Assembly: GCA_947628835.1 (NCBI GenBank)
Contig: CANRBL010000001.1
Span: 1,618-65,617 of the forward strand
Source of the DNA: an uncultured Clostridia bacterium
Lineage (GTDB): Bacteria > Bacillota > Clostridia > TANB77 > CAG-508
DNA length: 64,000 nt
Reading direction: 5' to 3'
The notes under the pieces are model-generated. The model ran no database searches. It was given only the letters and a program-made list of their open reading frames with translations, and was not told where the DNA came from. Positions 19,699 to 63,000 of the stretch are shown one piece after another. The stretch's first letter is position 1. Every line of letters starts with the position of its first letter. The translations under genes were made by a program, and so were the position numbers.

Positions 19699-20700
19699 AT
19701 GATAATTAATTATGAAGATTCTAATTTTCCAATTTCTTTACGCAATATTCCCAATGCACCTAAACAGTTATATGTAAAGGGAAACATTAATTTATTAAAT
19801 TCTATCGGTATTGCAATTATAGGTTCTCGAAATTGTACTGATTATGGGAAAAAAATGTGCGAATATTTTACAAAAAAACTAACCCAGTATGGATTAACTA
19901 TAATTAGTGGAATGGCTGTTGGTATTGATGCCATTTCTCATATTACCGCAATCAAAAATAATGGAAAAACTATTGCTGTTTTACCCAGTGGTTTTAATCA
20001 TATTTTTCCTAAGGAAAATATTAATCTATTTGAAGATATTATTAACTCTGATGGTTGTATTGTTAGTGAATATTCACCTGATATTTATGCTTCATATAAT
20101 AATTTTTTAAAACGAAACAGAATTGTTAGTGGTTTAGCAATAGGCACTTTAGTAATTGAAGCAGGATATAGAAGTGGTACTACTGTTACTGCTAGACTAA
20201 CTAATCAGCAAGACAAAAAAGTATTCTGTGTTCCAAGTAACTTAGATAATCCTAAGGGAATCAGCACAAATACTTTAATACAAAAGGGTGCTTTTTTAGT
20301 TACTTGTGCAGAGGACATTCTAAAACAAATTCCTGACTTAAATATTAATATTATTAATGAAAAGAGAAATCATTTTATAGATAATACCTCTGATTCTAAG
20401 TACAATTCTTATACTAATACTAACATTAATTCTAATATTAATCCCAATATTAATTCTAATATTAATTCTAATATTAATTCTAATATTAATTCTAATAATA
20501 TTTCTAATAATATTAATTTTAAAATTAATCCCAATCTTTTAGACATTTACAATCTTATTAGTAATGAACCAATTGATATTGATGATATTATACGTCTATC
20601 TAATTTAAGTATTAATGAAGTTAATTATAAACTTACTATGCTTGAACTTGAAAATTTGATAATACAATTGCCAGGAAAACAATTTATTTTAAAAAATTAA
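19699..20700 (+). CDS. dprA: DNA-processing protein DprA (Smf)
   Basis: IAIIGSRNCTDYGKK Rossmann-like DprA core; contains an in-frame N/I/S-rich repeat insertion before the C-terminal domain. Confidence 0.85.
   Translation: MIINYEDSNFPISLRNIPNAPKQLYVKGNINLLNSIGIAIIGSRNCTDYGKKMCEYFTKKLTQYGLTIISGMAVGIDAISHITAIKNNGKTIAVLPSGFNHIFPKENINLFEDIINSDGCIVSEYSPDIYASYNNFLKRNRIVSGLAIGTLVIEAGYRSGTTVTARLTNQQDKKVFCVPSNLDNPKGISTNTLIQKGAFLVTCAEDILKQIPDLNINIINEKRNHFIDNTSDSKYNSYTNTNINSNINPNINSNINSNINSNINSNNISNNINFKINPNLLDIYNLISNEPIDIDDIIRLSNLSINEVNYKLTMLELENLIIQLPGKQFILKN
20423..20520 (+). repeat. in-frame 12-bp tandem repeat (aatattaattct)n inside dprA
   Basis: about 7 tandem units encoding NINS/NINP repeats, seen directly. 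Confidence 0.85.
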
Positions 20701-36229: not shown

Positions 36230-37543
36230 TCAATTATTATAACCAGGTTTTTCTAATAATTTAAACATATTTTTCTTATATTCTTCTACTCCTGGTTGAT
36301 TAAATGGATCAACTCCCAATATCATTCCTGATACTGCACATGCTTTTTCAAAGAAATAGATTAAATGACCTATAGTTTCTTCATTTAGTTTTTGCATATT
36401 AATCATAATATTAGGTACATCTCCAGATATATGTGCTTCAACAGTACCTTCCATAGCCTTTTTATTTACATAGTCTAATTCTTTACCTGCTAAATAATTC
36501 AATCCATCTAAATTATTTTCATCAGAATTTATTAAAATATTAGAGTTTGGTTCTTTTATGTTTATAACAGTTTCAAATAAATTTCTTCTTCCATCTTGTA
36601 TATATTGACCCATTGAATGTAAATCTGTAGTAAATTCTACACCTGCTGGAAATATTCCTTTCTTTTCTTTTCCTTCACTTTCTCCATATAATTGTTTCCA
36701 CCATTCTGTAAAAAAGTGCATTTTAGGTTCATAATTTACTAAAATTTCTATATTTTTTTCTGATTTATATAATATATTTCTTGCTACTGCATATTGATAA
36801 CATTCATTATATTTTAATTTACTATCTTCATATTTGTACTGTGCTACTCTTGCTCCTTCCATCAATTTATCTATATCTATTCCTGCTACTGCTATTGGCA
36901 ATAATCCCACTGCTGTTAATACTGAATATCTACCTCCTATATTATCTGGTATAACAAATGTTTCATATCCTTCCTCATCAGCTAAGGTTTTTAATGCTCC
37001 CCTTTGTTTATCAGTAGTAACAAATATTCTTCTTTGGGCTTCTTCTATTCCATATTTATTTTCTATCATTTCTCTGAATATTCTAAATGCAATTGCTGGC
37101 TCTGTTGTAGTTCCTGATTTAGATATTACATTTATAGAAAAATCTCTATCCCCTATTATTTCTATTAAATCATTTATATAGTTAGGACTTAAATTATTTC
37201 CAACATATAATATTTGAGGATGTTTCCTTTTCTTGTATGGTAACATATTATAAAACGTATTTGTTAAAGATTCTATAACTGCTCTTGCACCTAAATATGA
37301 ACCACCTATTCCAATTACTACTAATACTTCTGAATTTTCTACTATTTTTTCTGCTGATTTTTTTATCTTATTAAATTCTTCTTTATCATATTTACTTGGC
37401 AATTTTAACCAGCCTACAAAATCATCTTCTTTGTCTGCCCTTTCATTTAATTCTTTGTGTATGCTTTCTACAGTTTTACTGTATTCCATAATTTCCTTTT
37501 GCTCAATTCCACTATTTTTTAAATCAATCTTAACTTCAAACAT
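36230..37543 (-). CDS. pgi: glucose-6-phosphate isomerase
   Basis: [15 protein letters not shown]-domain motif and PGI family length. Confidence 0.85.
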
Positions 37544-37747
37544 ATAACCACACTCCTTTTTTTATTATAGAAATTACATCTTGCATATGCAATTTTTATA
37601 TGTTCATTATATATAACTATAATAAATATTGCAAGATAAAAATAAAAACTATACTATTTTGTAGTTACAAGTTAATGGTTTTTAATAGATAAATTACTAA
37701 AAACATTATATGTTACACGTTAATGGTTTTAAAAGGATAAATTTCTA

Positions 37748-38033
37748 AAAGCATTGAAATATAAGATTTTCACTACATTCCTCGGCTCTTTACAAAGCTT
37801 AAGAACTTCTAACTTATTTTATGGCACCCTTTCACTCAACGCGAACTATTTCCATAAAATTGCGTAGAATTTCTAAAGTTTTTCCAAGTTCTAGACAATT
37901 GCGTGCAATTGTCGTAGAAATTGGTTATGCGAAAATTAGATTTTCTTATGGCAAAGCCATATAGAAAATCTTAATTTCGTTTTTCCAATCACATTCGTCA
38001 TTTCATTCAAATTCTTATATTTCAATGCTTTTT
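37748..38033. repeat. nested palindromic element (family 1-related core inside outer inverted repeats)
   Basis: outer inverted repeat gcattgaaatataaga / tcttatatttcaatgc; inner palindrome gaaaattagattttct...agaaaatcttaatttc; core ttatggcaccctttcactcaacgcgaac resembles the family-1 core. Confidence 0.6.
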
Positions 38034-38157: not shown

Positions 38158-38607
38158 ATGTGGAAATTATGGTTAATAGCTTCTGGAATATTTTTTATAG
38201 GTGAAATGGTCACAGTTGGTTTTTTAATATTTTGGCTTGGAATTGGTGCATTACTAGCAATGGTTGCCAGTTTCTTTACTGATAATATTATAATTCAGAC
38301 AACAATTTTTGTTATTTCTTCTGGATTACTTATTTTTGCCACAAAACCTTTTGTAAAAAAATTTGCAAAAAGTAAAAATCCTATTAATACCAATGTATAT
38401 TCAATAATTGGCAAAAAAGGTATTGTTATAGAAGATATTAATCCTAGCAAAAGTTGTGGACAAATTAAAATTGCAGGTGAAGTATGGTCTGCTACATGCG
38501 ACGAAAATTTGACTATAGAAAAAGGTACTGAAATAGAAGTTTGTGAAATTAATGGTGTAAAAGCATATGTAAAGCCTATAAATGTAGTAGTTACTAAAGA
38601 TAATTAA
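38158..38607 (+). CDS. NfeD-family membrane protein (short form)
   Basis: two TM helices plus a C-terminal OB-fold; immediately upstream of an SPFH gene, the classic nfeD-SPFH pairing. Confidence 0.7.
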   Translation: MWKLWLIASGIFFIGEMVTVGFLIFWLGIGALLAMVASFFTDNIIIQTTIFVISSGLLIFATKPFVKKFAKSKNPINTNVYSIIGKKGIVIEDINPSKSCGQIKIAGEVWSATCDENLTIEKGTEIEVCEINGVKAYVKPINVVVTKDN

Positions 38608-59480: not shown

Positions 59481-59879
59481 TTACCATACATATGCTAATA
59501 CTTCTCCACCTACTCCAAGTTCACGCGCTTGTTTGTCTGTCTTTATTCCTTTTGATGTAGATATAATAGCAATTCCTAATCCATTTAATACTTTTGGTAA
59601 TTCTTCTTTTCCAGCATATACTCTTAATCCTGGTTTACTTATTCTTTTTAAACCATCTATTACTCTTGTTCCATTTTCTGAATATTTAAGAGTAATTCTT
59701 ATTATTCCTTGACTATCACTATTTATTTCTTCCATAGATTTTATATAACCTTCTTTTAATAAAATATCAGCTATTGCTAATTTCATTTTAGATGAAGGGA
59801 TATCTACTGTTTTATGTTTTGAACTATTTGCATTTCTAATTCTTGTTAACATATCTGCTATTGGGTCTGTAATGTTCAA
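59481..59879 (-). CDS. rpsH: 30S ribosomal protein S8
   Basis: [14 protein letters not shown]. Confidence 0.9.
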
Positions 59880-59961
59880 TTTACTTTCCTCCTTTTCTTC
59901 TTTTTTCGTTTCAAATGTTTACAATCTATTTGTATTACTTGCTAACATTTGAATTTTTATA

Positions 59962-60147
59962 TTACCAACTTGTTTTCTTTACTCCTGGTATTTCTCCTTT
60001 ATGTGCTAATTCTCTAAAGCATATACGACAAATACCATATTTTCTTAAATATGCATGTGGTCTACCACATAGTTTGCATCTGTTGTATTCTCTTGTTTTG
60101 TATTTTTGTGGTTTTTGTTGCTTTACTTTCATTGATTTTTTAGCCAT
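59962..60147 (-). CDS. rpsZ: 30S ribosomal protein S14 type Z (zinc-binding)
   Basis: 61 aa with [23 protein letters not shown]. Confidence 0.9.
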
Positions 60148-60281
60148 TACTTTTTACTCCTTCCTTGACTTTTATTCAATGCTTTTTATTTGTATAAATT
60201 AGCTTTTTGTTATTTATTCTTTATTTTATTATTTATTTTTCTATTATCATAATTGATTTTAAGCTATTTTTATTTTTTTAC

Positions 60282-60821
60282 TTAATTTTTGAAAGGTATT
60301 CCTAATAATCTTAATAACTCTCTTGCCTCTTCATCAGTTTGAGCTGTTGTTACAAAAATTATATCCATTCCTCTTAATTTATCAACTTTGTCATATTCAA
60401 TTTCAGGGAATATTAATTGCTCTTTTACTCCCATAGAATAATTTCCTCTACCATCAAAAGAATCTGCTGATACTCCTCTAAAATCTCTTACTCTTGGTAA
60501 TGCTACATTAAATAATTTATATGCAAAATCATACATTTTGTCTTTTCTTAATGTAACTTTACATCCTACATTTACTCCTTCTCTTAATTTGAAAGCTGCA
60601 ATTGATTTCTTTGCTTTTGTTACTATTGGTCTTTGACCTGTTATAATGCTTAAATCATTCATTGCATTTTCTAATGATTTAGGATTTTCTTTTATATCTC
60701 CTAAACCAATATTTATAACTATCTTCTCAAGTTTTGGAACTTGTGATATTGATTTATATTCAAATTTTTTCATTAATGCTGGTACTACTTCTTTTTCATA
60801 TTGCTCTCTTAATTTTTGCAT
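60282..60821 (-). CDS. rplE: 50S ribosomal protein L5
   Basis: L5 family; position between rplX and rpsZ. Confidence 0.9.
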
Positions 60822-60845
60822 TTTGTTTTTTCCTCCTTTCTAATT

Positions 60846-61154
60846 TTATTTTATGATTTCTCCACATTTTTTACATATACGAACTTTTTTGTCTTTATCT
60901 ATTTTATATCCTATTTTTGTAGGATTTCCACATTTTGAACATACTACTGCAACTTTACTTGCATATATGCTACATTCTACTGGGATTATTCCTCCTGCTT
61001 CTCCTTGTTTTTTTGGTTTTACATGTTTTTTTCTTACATTTATACCTTTTACTATTACTTTACCAGATTTAGGAATAACTTCTAATACTTCTCCTTTTTT
61101 ATCTTTGTCATTTCCAGATAAAACTTGTACTGTATCTCCTTTATGTATTCTCAC
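60846..61154 (-). CDS. rplX: 50S ribosomal protein L24, with C-terminal Cys4 zinc-ribbon variant
   Basis: KOW N-terminus MRIHKGDTVQVLSGNDKDKKGEV; C-terminus CSKCGNPTKIGYKIDKDKKVRICKKCGE. Confidence 0.88.
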   Translation of the reverse strand: MRIHKGDTVQVLSGNDKDKKGEVLEVIPKSGKVIVKGINVRKKHVKPKKQGEAGGIIPVECSIYASKVAVVCSKCGNPTKIGYKIDKDKKVRICKKCGEIIK

Positions 61155-61231
61155 TTAGAATTTCCCTCCTTTTCTTTTTATTTTAATTAATTATCTCTAC
61201 TTAAATTTTCTTTCTTTTTATATAACACTCC

Positions 61232-61530
61232 TCTTATCATACATAAAACACTTCGTGATTCTTTGCGTTTTTTGTATTTTTTATCTTCTTATTCGAGTTA
61301 CTTTTGCTTCTTTTTTGGCTTATCATACATAAAACACTTCGTAATTCTTTGCGTTTTCTGTATTTTTAATCTTCTTATTCGAGTTACTTTTGCTTCTTTT
61401 TGGGCTTATCATACATAAAACACTTCGTGATATTTTGCTTTTTTTATCTTTAATTTTCTTATTCGAGTTACTTTTGCTTCTTTTTTGGTTTATCATACAT
61501 AAAACACTTCGTATATACTTCGTGTTTTAT
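61232..61530. repeat. tandem repeat, ~86-bp unit x 3.4, inserted between rplN and rplX
   Basis: units begin cttatcatacataaaacacttcgt(g/a)att... at 61232, 61318 and 61404, with a partial diverged copy at ~61488; the period of 86 bp is seen directly. Confidence 0.9.
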
Positions 61531-61582
61531 GCATCTTTAATCTGTAACACTCGATTATCTTTCAGATAATCTCGTTAACAGC

Positions 61583-61951
61583 TTAAAGAACTTCAGGGGC
61601 TAAAGAAAGAATTTTCATGTATTCTTGATCTCTTAATTCTCTTGCTACTGGTCCAAATATACGTGTTCCTCTTGGTGTTTTGTCATCTCTTATAATTACT
61701 GCTGCATTTTCATCAAATTTTATGTATGAACCGTCTGCTCTTCTTAATCCTCTTTTTGATCTTACTATAACAGCTTTTACAACATCACCTTTTTTTACAA
61801 CTCCACCTGGTGTTGCTGATTTTACTGAAGCTACTATCATATCACCAATGTTTGCATTTTTTCTATAAGAACCACCAACACATCTAATACACATCAACTC
61901 TTTTGCTCCAGTATTATCTGCTACCTTCAATATAGTTTGTTGCTGTATCAT
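61583..61951 (-). CDS. rplN: 50S ribosomal protein L14
   Basis: [27 protein letters not shown]. Confidence 0.9.
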
Positions 61952-62054
61952 TACTTATTTTCCTCCTTTTTAATAATCTTTTTTTGTTTTATTTCTTACT
62001 ATTAGATTATATTTTTTTGAGGTTCGACGTTGAATTTTTTTCAACTTCTAACTT

Positions 62055-62318
62055 CTATTTTATTACTGCTTTTTCAAGAATTTCCACTACTCTCCATCTT
62101 TTTTCTTTAGATAGTGGTCTTGTTTCCATAACTTTAACTTTATCACCAATTTGGCAACTATTGTTTTCGTCATGTGCTTTTAATTTATATGTTCTTTTTA
62201 CTATTTTTCCATATGTTTTATGGCTAACACTTGTTTCTACTGCAACTACAACTGTTTTATCCATTTTATTAGATATAACTTTGCCAACCATAACTTTACG
62301 AAGATTTCTTTCTCCCAT
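62055..62318 (-). CDS. rpsQ: 30S ribosomal protein S17
   Basis: [22 protein letters not shown]. Confidence 0.9.
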
Positions 62319-62363
62319 TTAGATTTCTCCTTTCTACTAAGTGTACGATTATACTATATACTT

Positions 62364-62564
62364 TTATTTCTTGTCTTCAGCTATTTTTCTTTCTGTTATA
62401 ACTGTATTTATTCTAGCTATATCTCTTTTTACATCTTTTATTTTACTTGGGTTTTCTAATCCATTAGTAGCTAAACTAAATTTTAATTTGAATAACTCTG
62501 TTTTTAATTCGCTTAGTTCTTTGTCTAACTCTTGTGAAGACATTTCTCTAATTTTATCTATCTT
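62364..62564 (-). CDS. rpmC: 50S ribosomal protein L29
   Basis: [39 protein letters not shown]; start taken at the internal Met. Confidence 0.85.
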
Positions 62565-63000
62565 CATCACTATCACCCACCTCATTTTCAATTTCTTTTG
62601 CTACAAATTTTGATTTTATAGGTAATTTATTCATTGCTAATCTTAAAGCTTCTCTTGCAGTTGCTTCTGGTACACCTGCTATTTCAAACATTACTCTACC
62701 TGGTTTTACTACTGCTACCCAATATTCTGGAGCACCTTTACCTTTACCCATACGAGTTCCTGCAGGTTTTTTAGTAACTGGTTTGTCTGGAAATATTTTT
62801 ATCCAAACTTTTCCTCCTCTTTTTATATAACGAGTCATAGCAATACGTGCTGCTTCTATTTGATTACTCTTTATTGTTCCTGCTTCTATTGCTTGTATTC
62901 CATATTCACCATCTGTAACTTTGTTACCTCTCATGGCTTTTCCTCTAATTCTACCTTTTTGCATTTTTCTATATTTTGTTCTTTTTGGCATTAATGGCAT
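62554..63000 (-). CDS. rplP: 50S ribosomal protein L16
   Basis: [20 protein letters not shown]. Confidence 0.9.

Follow-up and report, generated by a model that had tools for sequence, protein, structure and literature searches.

In the window analysed here, a stretch of 64,000 nucleotides (nt) from an uncultured Clostridia bacterium, the S10/spc ribosomal-protein genes are encoded on the minus strand. Within them, rplN (ribosomal protein L14) and rplX (ribosomal protein L24) are separated by a gap of 428 nt (61155-61582) that holds a tandem array of 3.6 units of 86 nt (61233..61543, minus strand). It is rather probable that this array is a co-transcribed, non-coding, lineage-private intercistronic minisatellite derived from an amplified hairpin module. 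It looks like a tolerated, fast-changing filler rather than a new regulator, and any function that depends on its sequence is probably slight or absent. The original prediction had placed a tandem repeat between rplN and rplX, and the array called by Tandem Repeats Finder (TRF), the exact repeated blocks and the length of the gap bear this out.

TRF reports one array in the gap, with a period of 86, 3.6 copies (3.4 had been predicted), 89% matches and 2% indels. Its score of 487 is the top score in the window. A repeat search places the copies at 61233-61318, 61319-61404 (95% identity to the first) and 61403-61488. The description of three near-identical units holds for the two at 95% identity; the third is an 84-nt unit of ~88% identity with about 10 gapped differences from the others. 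In transcript sense the array consists of units A (61543-61458), B (61457-61374, 84 nt) and C (61373-61288) and a partial unit D (61287-61233), which diverge from each other by 5-12%. With the module folds and the register taken from 61543, the arrangement is H-T-H-T-H-T-H, in which H is a hairpin module of ~52 nt resembling the hairpin HP2 described below and T is a 34-nt A-rich tail. Two blocks of the unit are invariant. The 23-nt block ACGAAGUGUUUUAUGUAUGAUAA forms the 3' arm of each module and holds both AUGs; its fourth copy of four is found at 61234..61256 (minus strand) and the other exact copies at 61320-61342, 61406-61428 and 61490-61512. The 30-nt A-rich tail block AAAAAGAAGCAAAAGUAACUCGAAUAAGAA has its third copy of three at 61286..61315 (minus strand) and the other exact copies at 61372-61401 and 61456-61485. 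An exact 23-mer present four times and an exact 30-mer present three times have an expectation of 0.00 in shuffles. The 5' arms of the modules vary, partly by A/G changes opposite U, with which pairing is preserved in the sense-strand RNA.

At its upstream end (transcript sense) the array shares nucleotides with the descending arm of a larger hairpin, one in which the rplN stop codon is paired and which was absent from the original prediction. This long imperfect hairpin (HP1; 61531..61591, minus strand), identified as an inverted repeat, by folding and by a covariance model, has the last rplN codons and the TAA stop as its 5' arm. Its outer stem of 12 bp, UCUUUAAGCUGU / ACAGAUUAAAGA, encloses an internal loop, an 8-bp apical stem and a 3-nt loop, and the fold has an energy of -20.2 kcal/mol (z -4.1). 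HP1 is directly adjoined on its 3' side by HP2, which is module H1 of the array (61495..61534, minus strand), a near-perfect 20+20-nt palindrome AUGCAUAAAACACGAAGUAU / AUACGAAGUGUUUUAUGUAU found as an inverted repeat and by folding. The hairpin that had been predicted at the end of the array is this one: its arms lie at 61495-61514 and 61515-61534, it folds at -15.9 kcal/mol (z -4.7), and the invariant 23-nt block supplies its 3' arm. Unit A starts with the descending (right) arm of HP1 and includes HP2, and the later units hold degenerate copies of the HP1 arm and of HP2. The modules of units C and D fold at -8.9 kcal/mol with z of about -3 to -4, while the fold of unit B is lost. Three of the four hairpin modules thus fold (z -3 to -5), and the alternative allele described next likewise keeps three of four. 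The fold of the whole gap has a z of -4.2.

The exact L24 protein of the window recurs on eight short contigs, each from a different ENA assembly (contigs and loci used for comparison are labelled with L-numbers such as L001 and L013). Five independent assemblies from different samples span the entire gap and three further contigs cover part of it; on every gap-spanning contig the gap measures 426-429 nt. Two alleles are found, the window type on L001, L002, L005 and L007 and an alternative type on L003, L004 and L008 (three of the eight contigs), and each is seen in at least three samples. They differ at 28 positions in the 311-nt array (9%) versus about 0.1% in the flanks, so that the array is about 70-fold more variable. 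The flanks of the two alleles show no difference in about 730 nt (L008) and four in about 3 kb (L003), the latter count leaving aside a cluster of differences at the contig end. In addition, the order of the units is shifted: unit 2 of the alternative allele matches unit 1 of the window with two differences, and its unit 1 is nearest to unit 3 of the window with four differences. This order and the contrast between array and flanks argue that the array turns over, by gain, loss or conversion of units, much faster than mutations accumulate beside it. Both alleles consist of three full units plus a partial one, with gaps of 428 and 429 nt and the same copy number on those of the eight contigs that span the gap, and each has one module without its fold.

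Dense clusters of differences are also observed at L003:3400-3571 and L004:1300-2160 (window ~60591-60649 and ~59481-59937), near low-coverage contig ends in rplE/rpsH. Recombination between strains, or chimeric ends of the contigs, could account for them.

In all searches made, the unit is restricted to this lineage. No further copy is found in the other ~63.6 kb of the window, even when three mismatches are permitted or blastn-short is used. An exact 20-mer gives 0 matches in the GTDB species genomes, an exact 22-mer gives 0 matches in a metagenome collection, and both invariant blocks give 0 exact matches in IMG/VR; these public-collection scans are for exact words, which diverged copies would escape. 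No homology to the unit is found in the loci of relatives. The original prediction had taken the same array in all relatives as the sign of an inert spacer, and the array occurs at no relative's locus. A search with L24 against 5.8 billion proteins returns nothing between 100% and 79% identity; the lineage is thus an isolated one, which leaves no way to follow the array's past through close relatives. Four loci looked up among the best L24 matches have spacers of 24-100 nt without the repeat, and a look-up with L14 gave no additional contigs.

The spacer itself is highly plastic in this clade, whose nearest members are uncultured Clostridia known from metagenome-assembled genomes of human, rabbit and other guts, and whose L14 is 77-89% identical to that of the window. 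In 79 other GTDB species rplN and rplX are a median of 26 nt apart (range -4 to 223 nt), with more than 100 nt between them in 13 species, so the expectation that the genes normally lie a few nucleotides apart is only roughly right. The 28 closest species have spacers of 22-223 nt with a median of 61 nt, compared with a median of 23 nt in the other species, and metagenome loci show the same pattern. Even sister species whose ribosomal proteins are almost the same differ by inserts, with spacers of 28, 71 and 161 nt in one group, 39 and 170 nt in another and 44 and 223 nt in a third. The inserts are mutually unrelated and comprise HP1-type sequence, a hairpin of ~130 nt, other long hairpins and heptad repeats. 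The ~130-nt hairpin is found in rabbit-gut relatives (L023, 2268-2400; L030, 2322-2465; L033, 2324-2465; and L032), with energies of -35 to -42 kcal/mol, z of -4.9 to -6.8 and no Rfam match. Its apical motif CUCAACGUGCAAAAGCACGCCUCCGG is conserved and covarying and contains CCUCC, which resembles an anti-Shine-Dalgarno sequence. The near-identical sisters L034, L035 and L025 are without this hairpin. Further long hairpins occupy the spacer in L022/L115 and in L122.

Heptad repeats stand directly past the rplN stop in L024 (TAGAAAT x10.7, 2366-2440) and in L081 (ATGCAGA x6, 564-606). In L122, GAATGTA-like repeats can be seen by eye within the long hairpin. The heptads of L024, L081 and L122 are independent expansions at one junction in unrelated lineages. 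The plastic spacer of the clade, these heptads, the long spacers of the operon and the repeats in the DprA-like and IF-2 genes of the window (see below) together indicate a site and a genome permissive for the growth of repeats and palindromes. The argument that a minisatellite is unexpected in one of the most conserved bacterial operons is thereby weakened.

The tolerance of such an insertion would be explained by the strong Shine-Dalgarno (SD) sequence that rplX has of its own. This sequence, AAGGAGGG (61164..61171, minus strand), lies 9 nt upstream of the GTG start codon, is homologous to the SD region of the relatives and closes the unique 3' part of the spacer. Its predicted pairing energy is -12.3 kcal/mol, and it allows L24 initiation independent of the upstream gene. 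An in-frame TAA immediately precedes the GTG. A scan of 60000-63000 gives 0 terminator-like sites, and both HP1 and HP2 are followed by A-rich sequence with no U-run. An intrinsic terminator or attenuator was rejected on this ground, no G+C-rich stem-loop with a U-run being found on the sense strand. No promoter was found by a sense-strand scan of the gap, and the one antisense match (9/12) is at chance level. Since the gap holds no terminator and the downstream genes have no other promoter, we infer that the array is part of the spc transcript. Rfam gives no relevant family for the whole window at the gathering score. At E<=10, 61050-61700 yields only chance matches to snoRNA and U6atac families (E 2-8.5), and the loci of ten relatives give no match. 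Of the structured leader or attenuator proposed originally, the structure stands, in that three of four modules fold and HP1 covaries; the terminator, the U-tract and a known RNA family do not.

The array is also judged to be non-coding. The predicted mini-open reading frame (mini-ORF) MYDKPKKKQK is indeed present three times (61298..61330, 61384..61416 and 61468..61500, minus strand), together with a truncated fourth copy, MYDKRSVI (61218..61244, minus strand). The mini-ORFs have no SD: their SD pairing of -1.0 kcal/mol equals the median of all 1,442 ATG triplets, the reference median for long open reading frames (ORFs) being -7.45 kcal/mol. From the sequence they are probably not translated via normal initiation. 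In the alternative allele the peptide carries D->N and P->L, and three synonymous changes stand against two non-synonymous ones. An apparent excess of synonymous differences was rejected, as it vanished when the alternative allele was read correctly. ORFs of at least 20 codons on either strand are not conserved between the alleles. A small protein-coding gene was rejected on the background-level SD pairing, the ORFs that differ between alleles and the two replacements in a 10-codon ORF.

In the window allele only, four ORFs of 13, 57, 29 and 17 amino acids (61187..61534, minus strand) are linked by AUGA stop/start overlaps into a chain that spans 348 of the 428 nt of the gap. Its first AUG lies 49 nt past the rplN stop, which it faces across the base of HP1, and its final stop lies 32 nt before the rplX start, so that neither gene is overlapped. 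The period of 86 nt is no multiple of 3 (2 mod 3), which makes the AUGA overlaps self-propagating, and the same self-linking property is present in 8% of shuffled units. In the alternative allele the chain is broken after about 240 nt. Because it has no SD, overlaps neither gene, is broken in that allele and arises so readily in shuffles, the chain is probably incidental.

HP1 is the more interesting piece of this locus than the array. Its covariance model, built from five sequences, matches only at the 3' end of rplN: in the window, in a few distant relatives (L013, L014 (truncated), L021, L011 and L119), and in 14 L013-type metagenome contigs plus one of L014 type, L108. It does not find HP1 in most sister species. 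In the alignment of the five sequences 94.9% of cells are paired and both sides have changed in 8 of 21 pairs, a number reached by 0 of 500 shuffles, and slid controls give 0-2. These compensations include a change of the stop from TAA to TAG and a synonymous change in the final rplN codons. Among the 65 ORFs of the window, HP1 ranks second in stability of stop-proximal folds and is the sole strong one with a paired stop codon. In L119 (529-640; JGI Ga0209737_10228841) the outer stem and the internal-loop sequence of HP1 are ~93% identical to the window despite identities of only 79% for L14 and 73% for L24. The apical helix is absent there, and a second hairpin, AUGCAAAAUUC-GAAAAG-GAAUUUUGUA, is found at the position of HP2. 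This likeness suggests selection on HP1, or a horizontal exchange of the spacer. On this evidence HP1 is a maintained palindrome and plausibly a functional RNA. It is dispensable, as its patchy presence among sister species indicates.

In L013 (2322-2501; human gut) the end of rplN is present in a second, downstream copy, GCUCUAUAAGC, which offers the right arm of HP1, GAUUAUAGAUGC, an alternative pairing partner. The resulting 1:2 and 2:3 hairpins exclude each other, in a geometry that resembles an attenuator but has no U-tract. The L013-type HP1 is found on metagenome contigs L095, L097-L106, L109, L118 and L121, and the spacer of sister species of L013 is only 28 nt long.

A history of the minisatellite can be proposed as follows. 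The ancestral spacer would have carried two stem-loops just past rplN, HP1, which pairs the stop codon, and HP2 on its 3' side. A segment made of the end of the HP1 right arm, HP2 and the A-rich tail would have been amplified head-to-tail by slipped-strand mispairing or unequal recombination to give H-T-H-T-H-T-H, and the units would later have diverged and been reshuffled between strains. A recent slippage expansion had been suggested before; local tandem amplification is the part of this that is best supported, by the restriction of the unit to this lineage, by a 5' end composed of local sequence (the HP1 right arm plus HP2) and by the shifted unit order, and units that have already diverged by 5-12% do not speak for "recent". 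The whole spacer would be transcribed within the spc operon mRNA and L24 translated independently from its own SD, with the array presumably evolving near neutrality. At most, the array would multiply a hairpin that could block 3'->5' exonucleases or mark a place of processing, and the rplN segment and the downstream mRNA would then have separate fates. Several observations weigh against a mere filler. Both alleles keep three full units and a partial one despite the reshuffling, which points to a possible constraint on length or copy number, although with n=2. A segment of 56 nt is far better conserved than the other 30 nt of the unit; this is unexpected under pure neutrality, although slippage at homopolymers in the variable part is a possible cause. 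Furthermore, three of four modules are kept per allele, with 5'-arm changes of the pairing-preserving kind, and the divergence among the units means that the array has persisted for some time.

These same observations bear on a functional cis-acting RNA, which we consider possible but unlikely. HP1, HP2 and the modules would then form an intercistronic control or processing element, for example a target of RNase III or RNase Y, a set of stem-loops that protect a 3' end, or a site bound by a ribosomal protein. The proportion of L14 to L24, or how stable the spc mRNA is, would depend on this element, with amplification tuning its strength. The eight compensatory pairs of HP1, including those at the stop and in the rplN codons, its near-identity in L119 in spite of the diverged proteins and its standing as the only strong fold of the window that pairs a stop codon speak for such an element, as does the finding that various relatives have long hairpins, of at least four unrelated kinds, at this position. 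The folding of most modules and of the whole gap, the A/G variation opposite U, the equal copy number of the alleles and the conserved 56-nt core of each unit point the same way. On the other hand, HP1 and the other inserts come and go among near-identical sisters and are therefore dispensable, the repeat has no homologue in any relative, one module per allele is unfolded, and neither an Rfam family nor a terminator is found. The compensatory changes of a palindrome could, moreover, be produced by template-switch correction of quasi-palindromes, which would mimic covariation without selection. That this clade has in its spc operon an undescribed cis-acting element for control or processing, made up of HP1, HP2 and the amplified copies, is distinctly unlikely in our judgement. 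Its parts would be HP1, with the stop codon paired, and the second hairpin by which HP1 is often followed, and at the start of spc they could govern how the mRNA is processed, how stable it is or how translation is coupled. The array would be its amplified second hairpin, possibly plus the AUGA-linked ORFs relaying ribosomes toward rplX, and the recurrent unrelated hairpins of the relatives would reflect convergent selection, not mutational noise. A translational relay by itself, similar to that of MIRUs (interspersed repetitive units of mycobacteria), in which the chained ORFs carry ribosomes across the spacer and so keep rplN and rplX coupled or protect untranslated RNA, has very little probability. 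It would account for the coverage of 348 nt by four linked ORFs, for the first AUG at the HP1 base and for the self-propagating overlaps, and a -4 coupling ORF has been described for MIRUs (PMC12548453). Its entry AUGs are without SD, the distances of 49 and 32 nt leave both genes unconnected, three of eight contigs carry the broken chain with non-synonymous changes in the mini-ORF, and self-linking units are easily obtained by shuffling.

A different origin, in which a dispersed or mobile repeat landed in the spacer and was then amplified, is quite improbable. The repeat could be of the type of a miniature inverted-repeat transposable element (MITE), a repetitive extragenic palindromic sequence or bacterial interspersed mosaic element (REP/BIME), a BOX element or a MIRU, and the palindromic module of the unit does resemble many small bacterial interspersed repeats. 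Inserts in this spacer do come and go among relatives, and the search for copies in the own genome covered 64 kb. Within these 64 kb no second copy is present at three mismatches, three public collections give 0 exact matches, the array passes without a break into HP1 at its 5' end, and no terminal inverted repeats or target-site duplication are found. In the DNA searched, nothing supports the mobile mini-element suggested by the original prediction. A TTAA target-site duplication around HP1 was rejected, because the flanking repeats are inverted, not direct, in the relatives. A MITE was likewise rejected: the arm of the palindrome beside rplN belongs to the coding sequence of that gene, and the searches made gave no other copies. 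An assembly artefact, i.e. a collapsed, expanded or chimeric short-read repeat, was a natural concern, since the source is probably a metagenome-assembled genome and the comparison contigs have about 2-4x coverage according to their names. Its probability is now practically negligible: five independent metagenome assemblies reproduce the array across a gap of the same length and three more contigs do so in part, two alleles each recur in at least three samples, and the differences between units allow their unambiguous placement. The lineage-private minisatellite accordingly remains the reading we prefer.

The closest known kind of element would be the intergenic minisatellite inside an operon, best exemplified by the MIRU-variable number tandem repeats (MIRU-VNTRs), and the comparison is one of analogy. 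MIRU units are reportedly 46-101 bp long. As in MIRUs, tandem units of tens of base pairs (here 86 nt, 3.6 copies) stand in an intergenic position within an operon, co-oriented with the flanking genes, and contain small ORFs with AUGA-type overlaps. The two kinds have no sequence relationship and belong to different phyla, the units described here each carry a hairpin module, and their ORFs overlap neither the flanking stop nor the flanking start and have no SD. The present array is known at one locus, as judged from the 64-kb window and the public collections, whereas MIRUs are dispersed, and unlike in MIRU-VNTRs its copy number is equal in both alleles on those of the eight contigs that span the gap. 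AUGA-type overlaps with a -4 coupling ORF are documented for MIRUs (PMC12548453). Compared with an ordinary VNTR, the array shares head-to-tail and diverged units, a reshuffled order, ~70-fold variability and a repeat-prone, AT-rich genome; it differs in its location inside a core ribosomal-protein operon and in showing no length polymorphism among the eight contigs.

For the hairpin modules the closest functional analogy may be the REP/BIME palindromes. REP units are ~35 nt long and present in hundreds of copies per genome, an example being those between malE and malF in Escherichia coli. Intercistronic palindromes of this type are said to act as barriers to 3'->5' exonucleases and to stabilise the upstream mRNA. 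Like them, the modules are imperfect palindromes without a U-tract in a presumably transcribed spacer inside an operon, and might plausibly form such a barrier. They differ in that an 86-nt unit is found at one locus of the DNA searched and that one module per allele is unfolded. The E. coli spc operon, whose mechanism of autoregulation has reportedly been worked out, has an S8 site at rplE and shows retroregulation of L14 and L24. The locus studied here likewise has structured RNA in the spc transcript near rplN/rplX, with HP1 helices that covary around a partly conserved internal loop. In contrast to E. coli, HP1 is located at the rplN/rplX junction and not at the start of rplE, has no match to an Rfam ribosomal leader and is patchy among sisters, and the tandem array has no counterpart there.

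If the array is indeed a tolerated minisatellite, it is mostly a curiosity. It would show that, in gut lineages that are very AT-rich and prone to repeats, over 400 nt of repeat DNA can be accommodated at the first intercistronic junction of spc when the downstream gene is equipped with a ribosome-binding site of its own. It would be usable as a strain marker for an uncultured species, two alleles being already visible, and it is a caution for annotation pipelines that assume tight rplN-rplX spacing. HP1 and the repeated gain of hairpins in relatives could point to an unstudied control of mRNA processing or coupling in ribosomal operons of Clostridia.

The two genes that border the gap are assigned by their ORFs and by precomputed Pfam labels on identical proteins from other contigs. 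rplN (61583..61951, minus strand) encodes 122 amino acids with Ribosomal_L14 (PF00238), and rplX (60846..61154, minus strand, GTG start) encodes 102 amino acids with KOW and ribosomal_L24. The window has a G+C content of 26.5%; on the sense strand of the gap, A makes up 51% and purines together 69%. The remaining spc/S10 spacers in the window (45, 103, 134, 82 and 89 nt) are generally long and A-rich. The rpsQ-rplN spacer (61952-62054) opens with TAGAAGT TAGAAGT, heptads that resemble those of L024, followed by a small hairpin, and the rpsN-rpsH spacer contains a 10-bp hairpin of -11.7 kcal/mol.

Outside the operon, a 48-bp x 1.9 tandem repeat with 86% matches is found at 37664-37755, in ~600 nt without an ORF of at least 60 amino acids between an ORF ending at 37543 and one starting at 38158. 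In a DprA-like ORF (19699-20700, plus strand), a 12-bp x 8.8 tandem repeat at 20404-20509 gives rise to an (NSNI)n run. The gene of IF-2 (22588-25653, minus strand) has an asparagine-rich low-complexity insertion of ~200 amino acids with TRF arrays at 24730-25096, including one of 105-bp period. Repeat expansion is tolerated by this genome even within essential genes.

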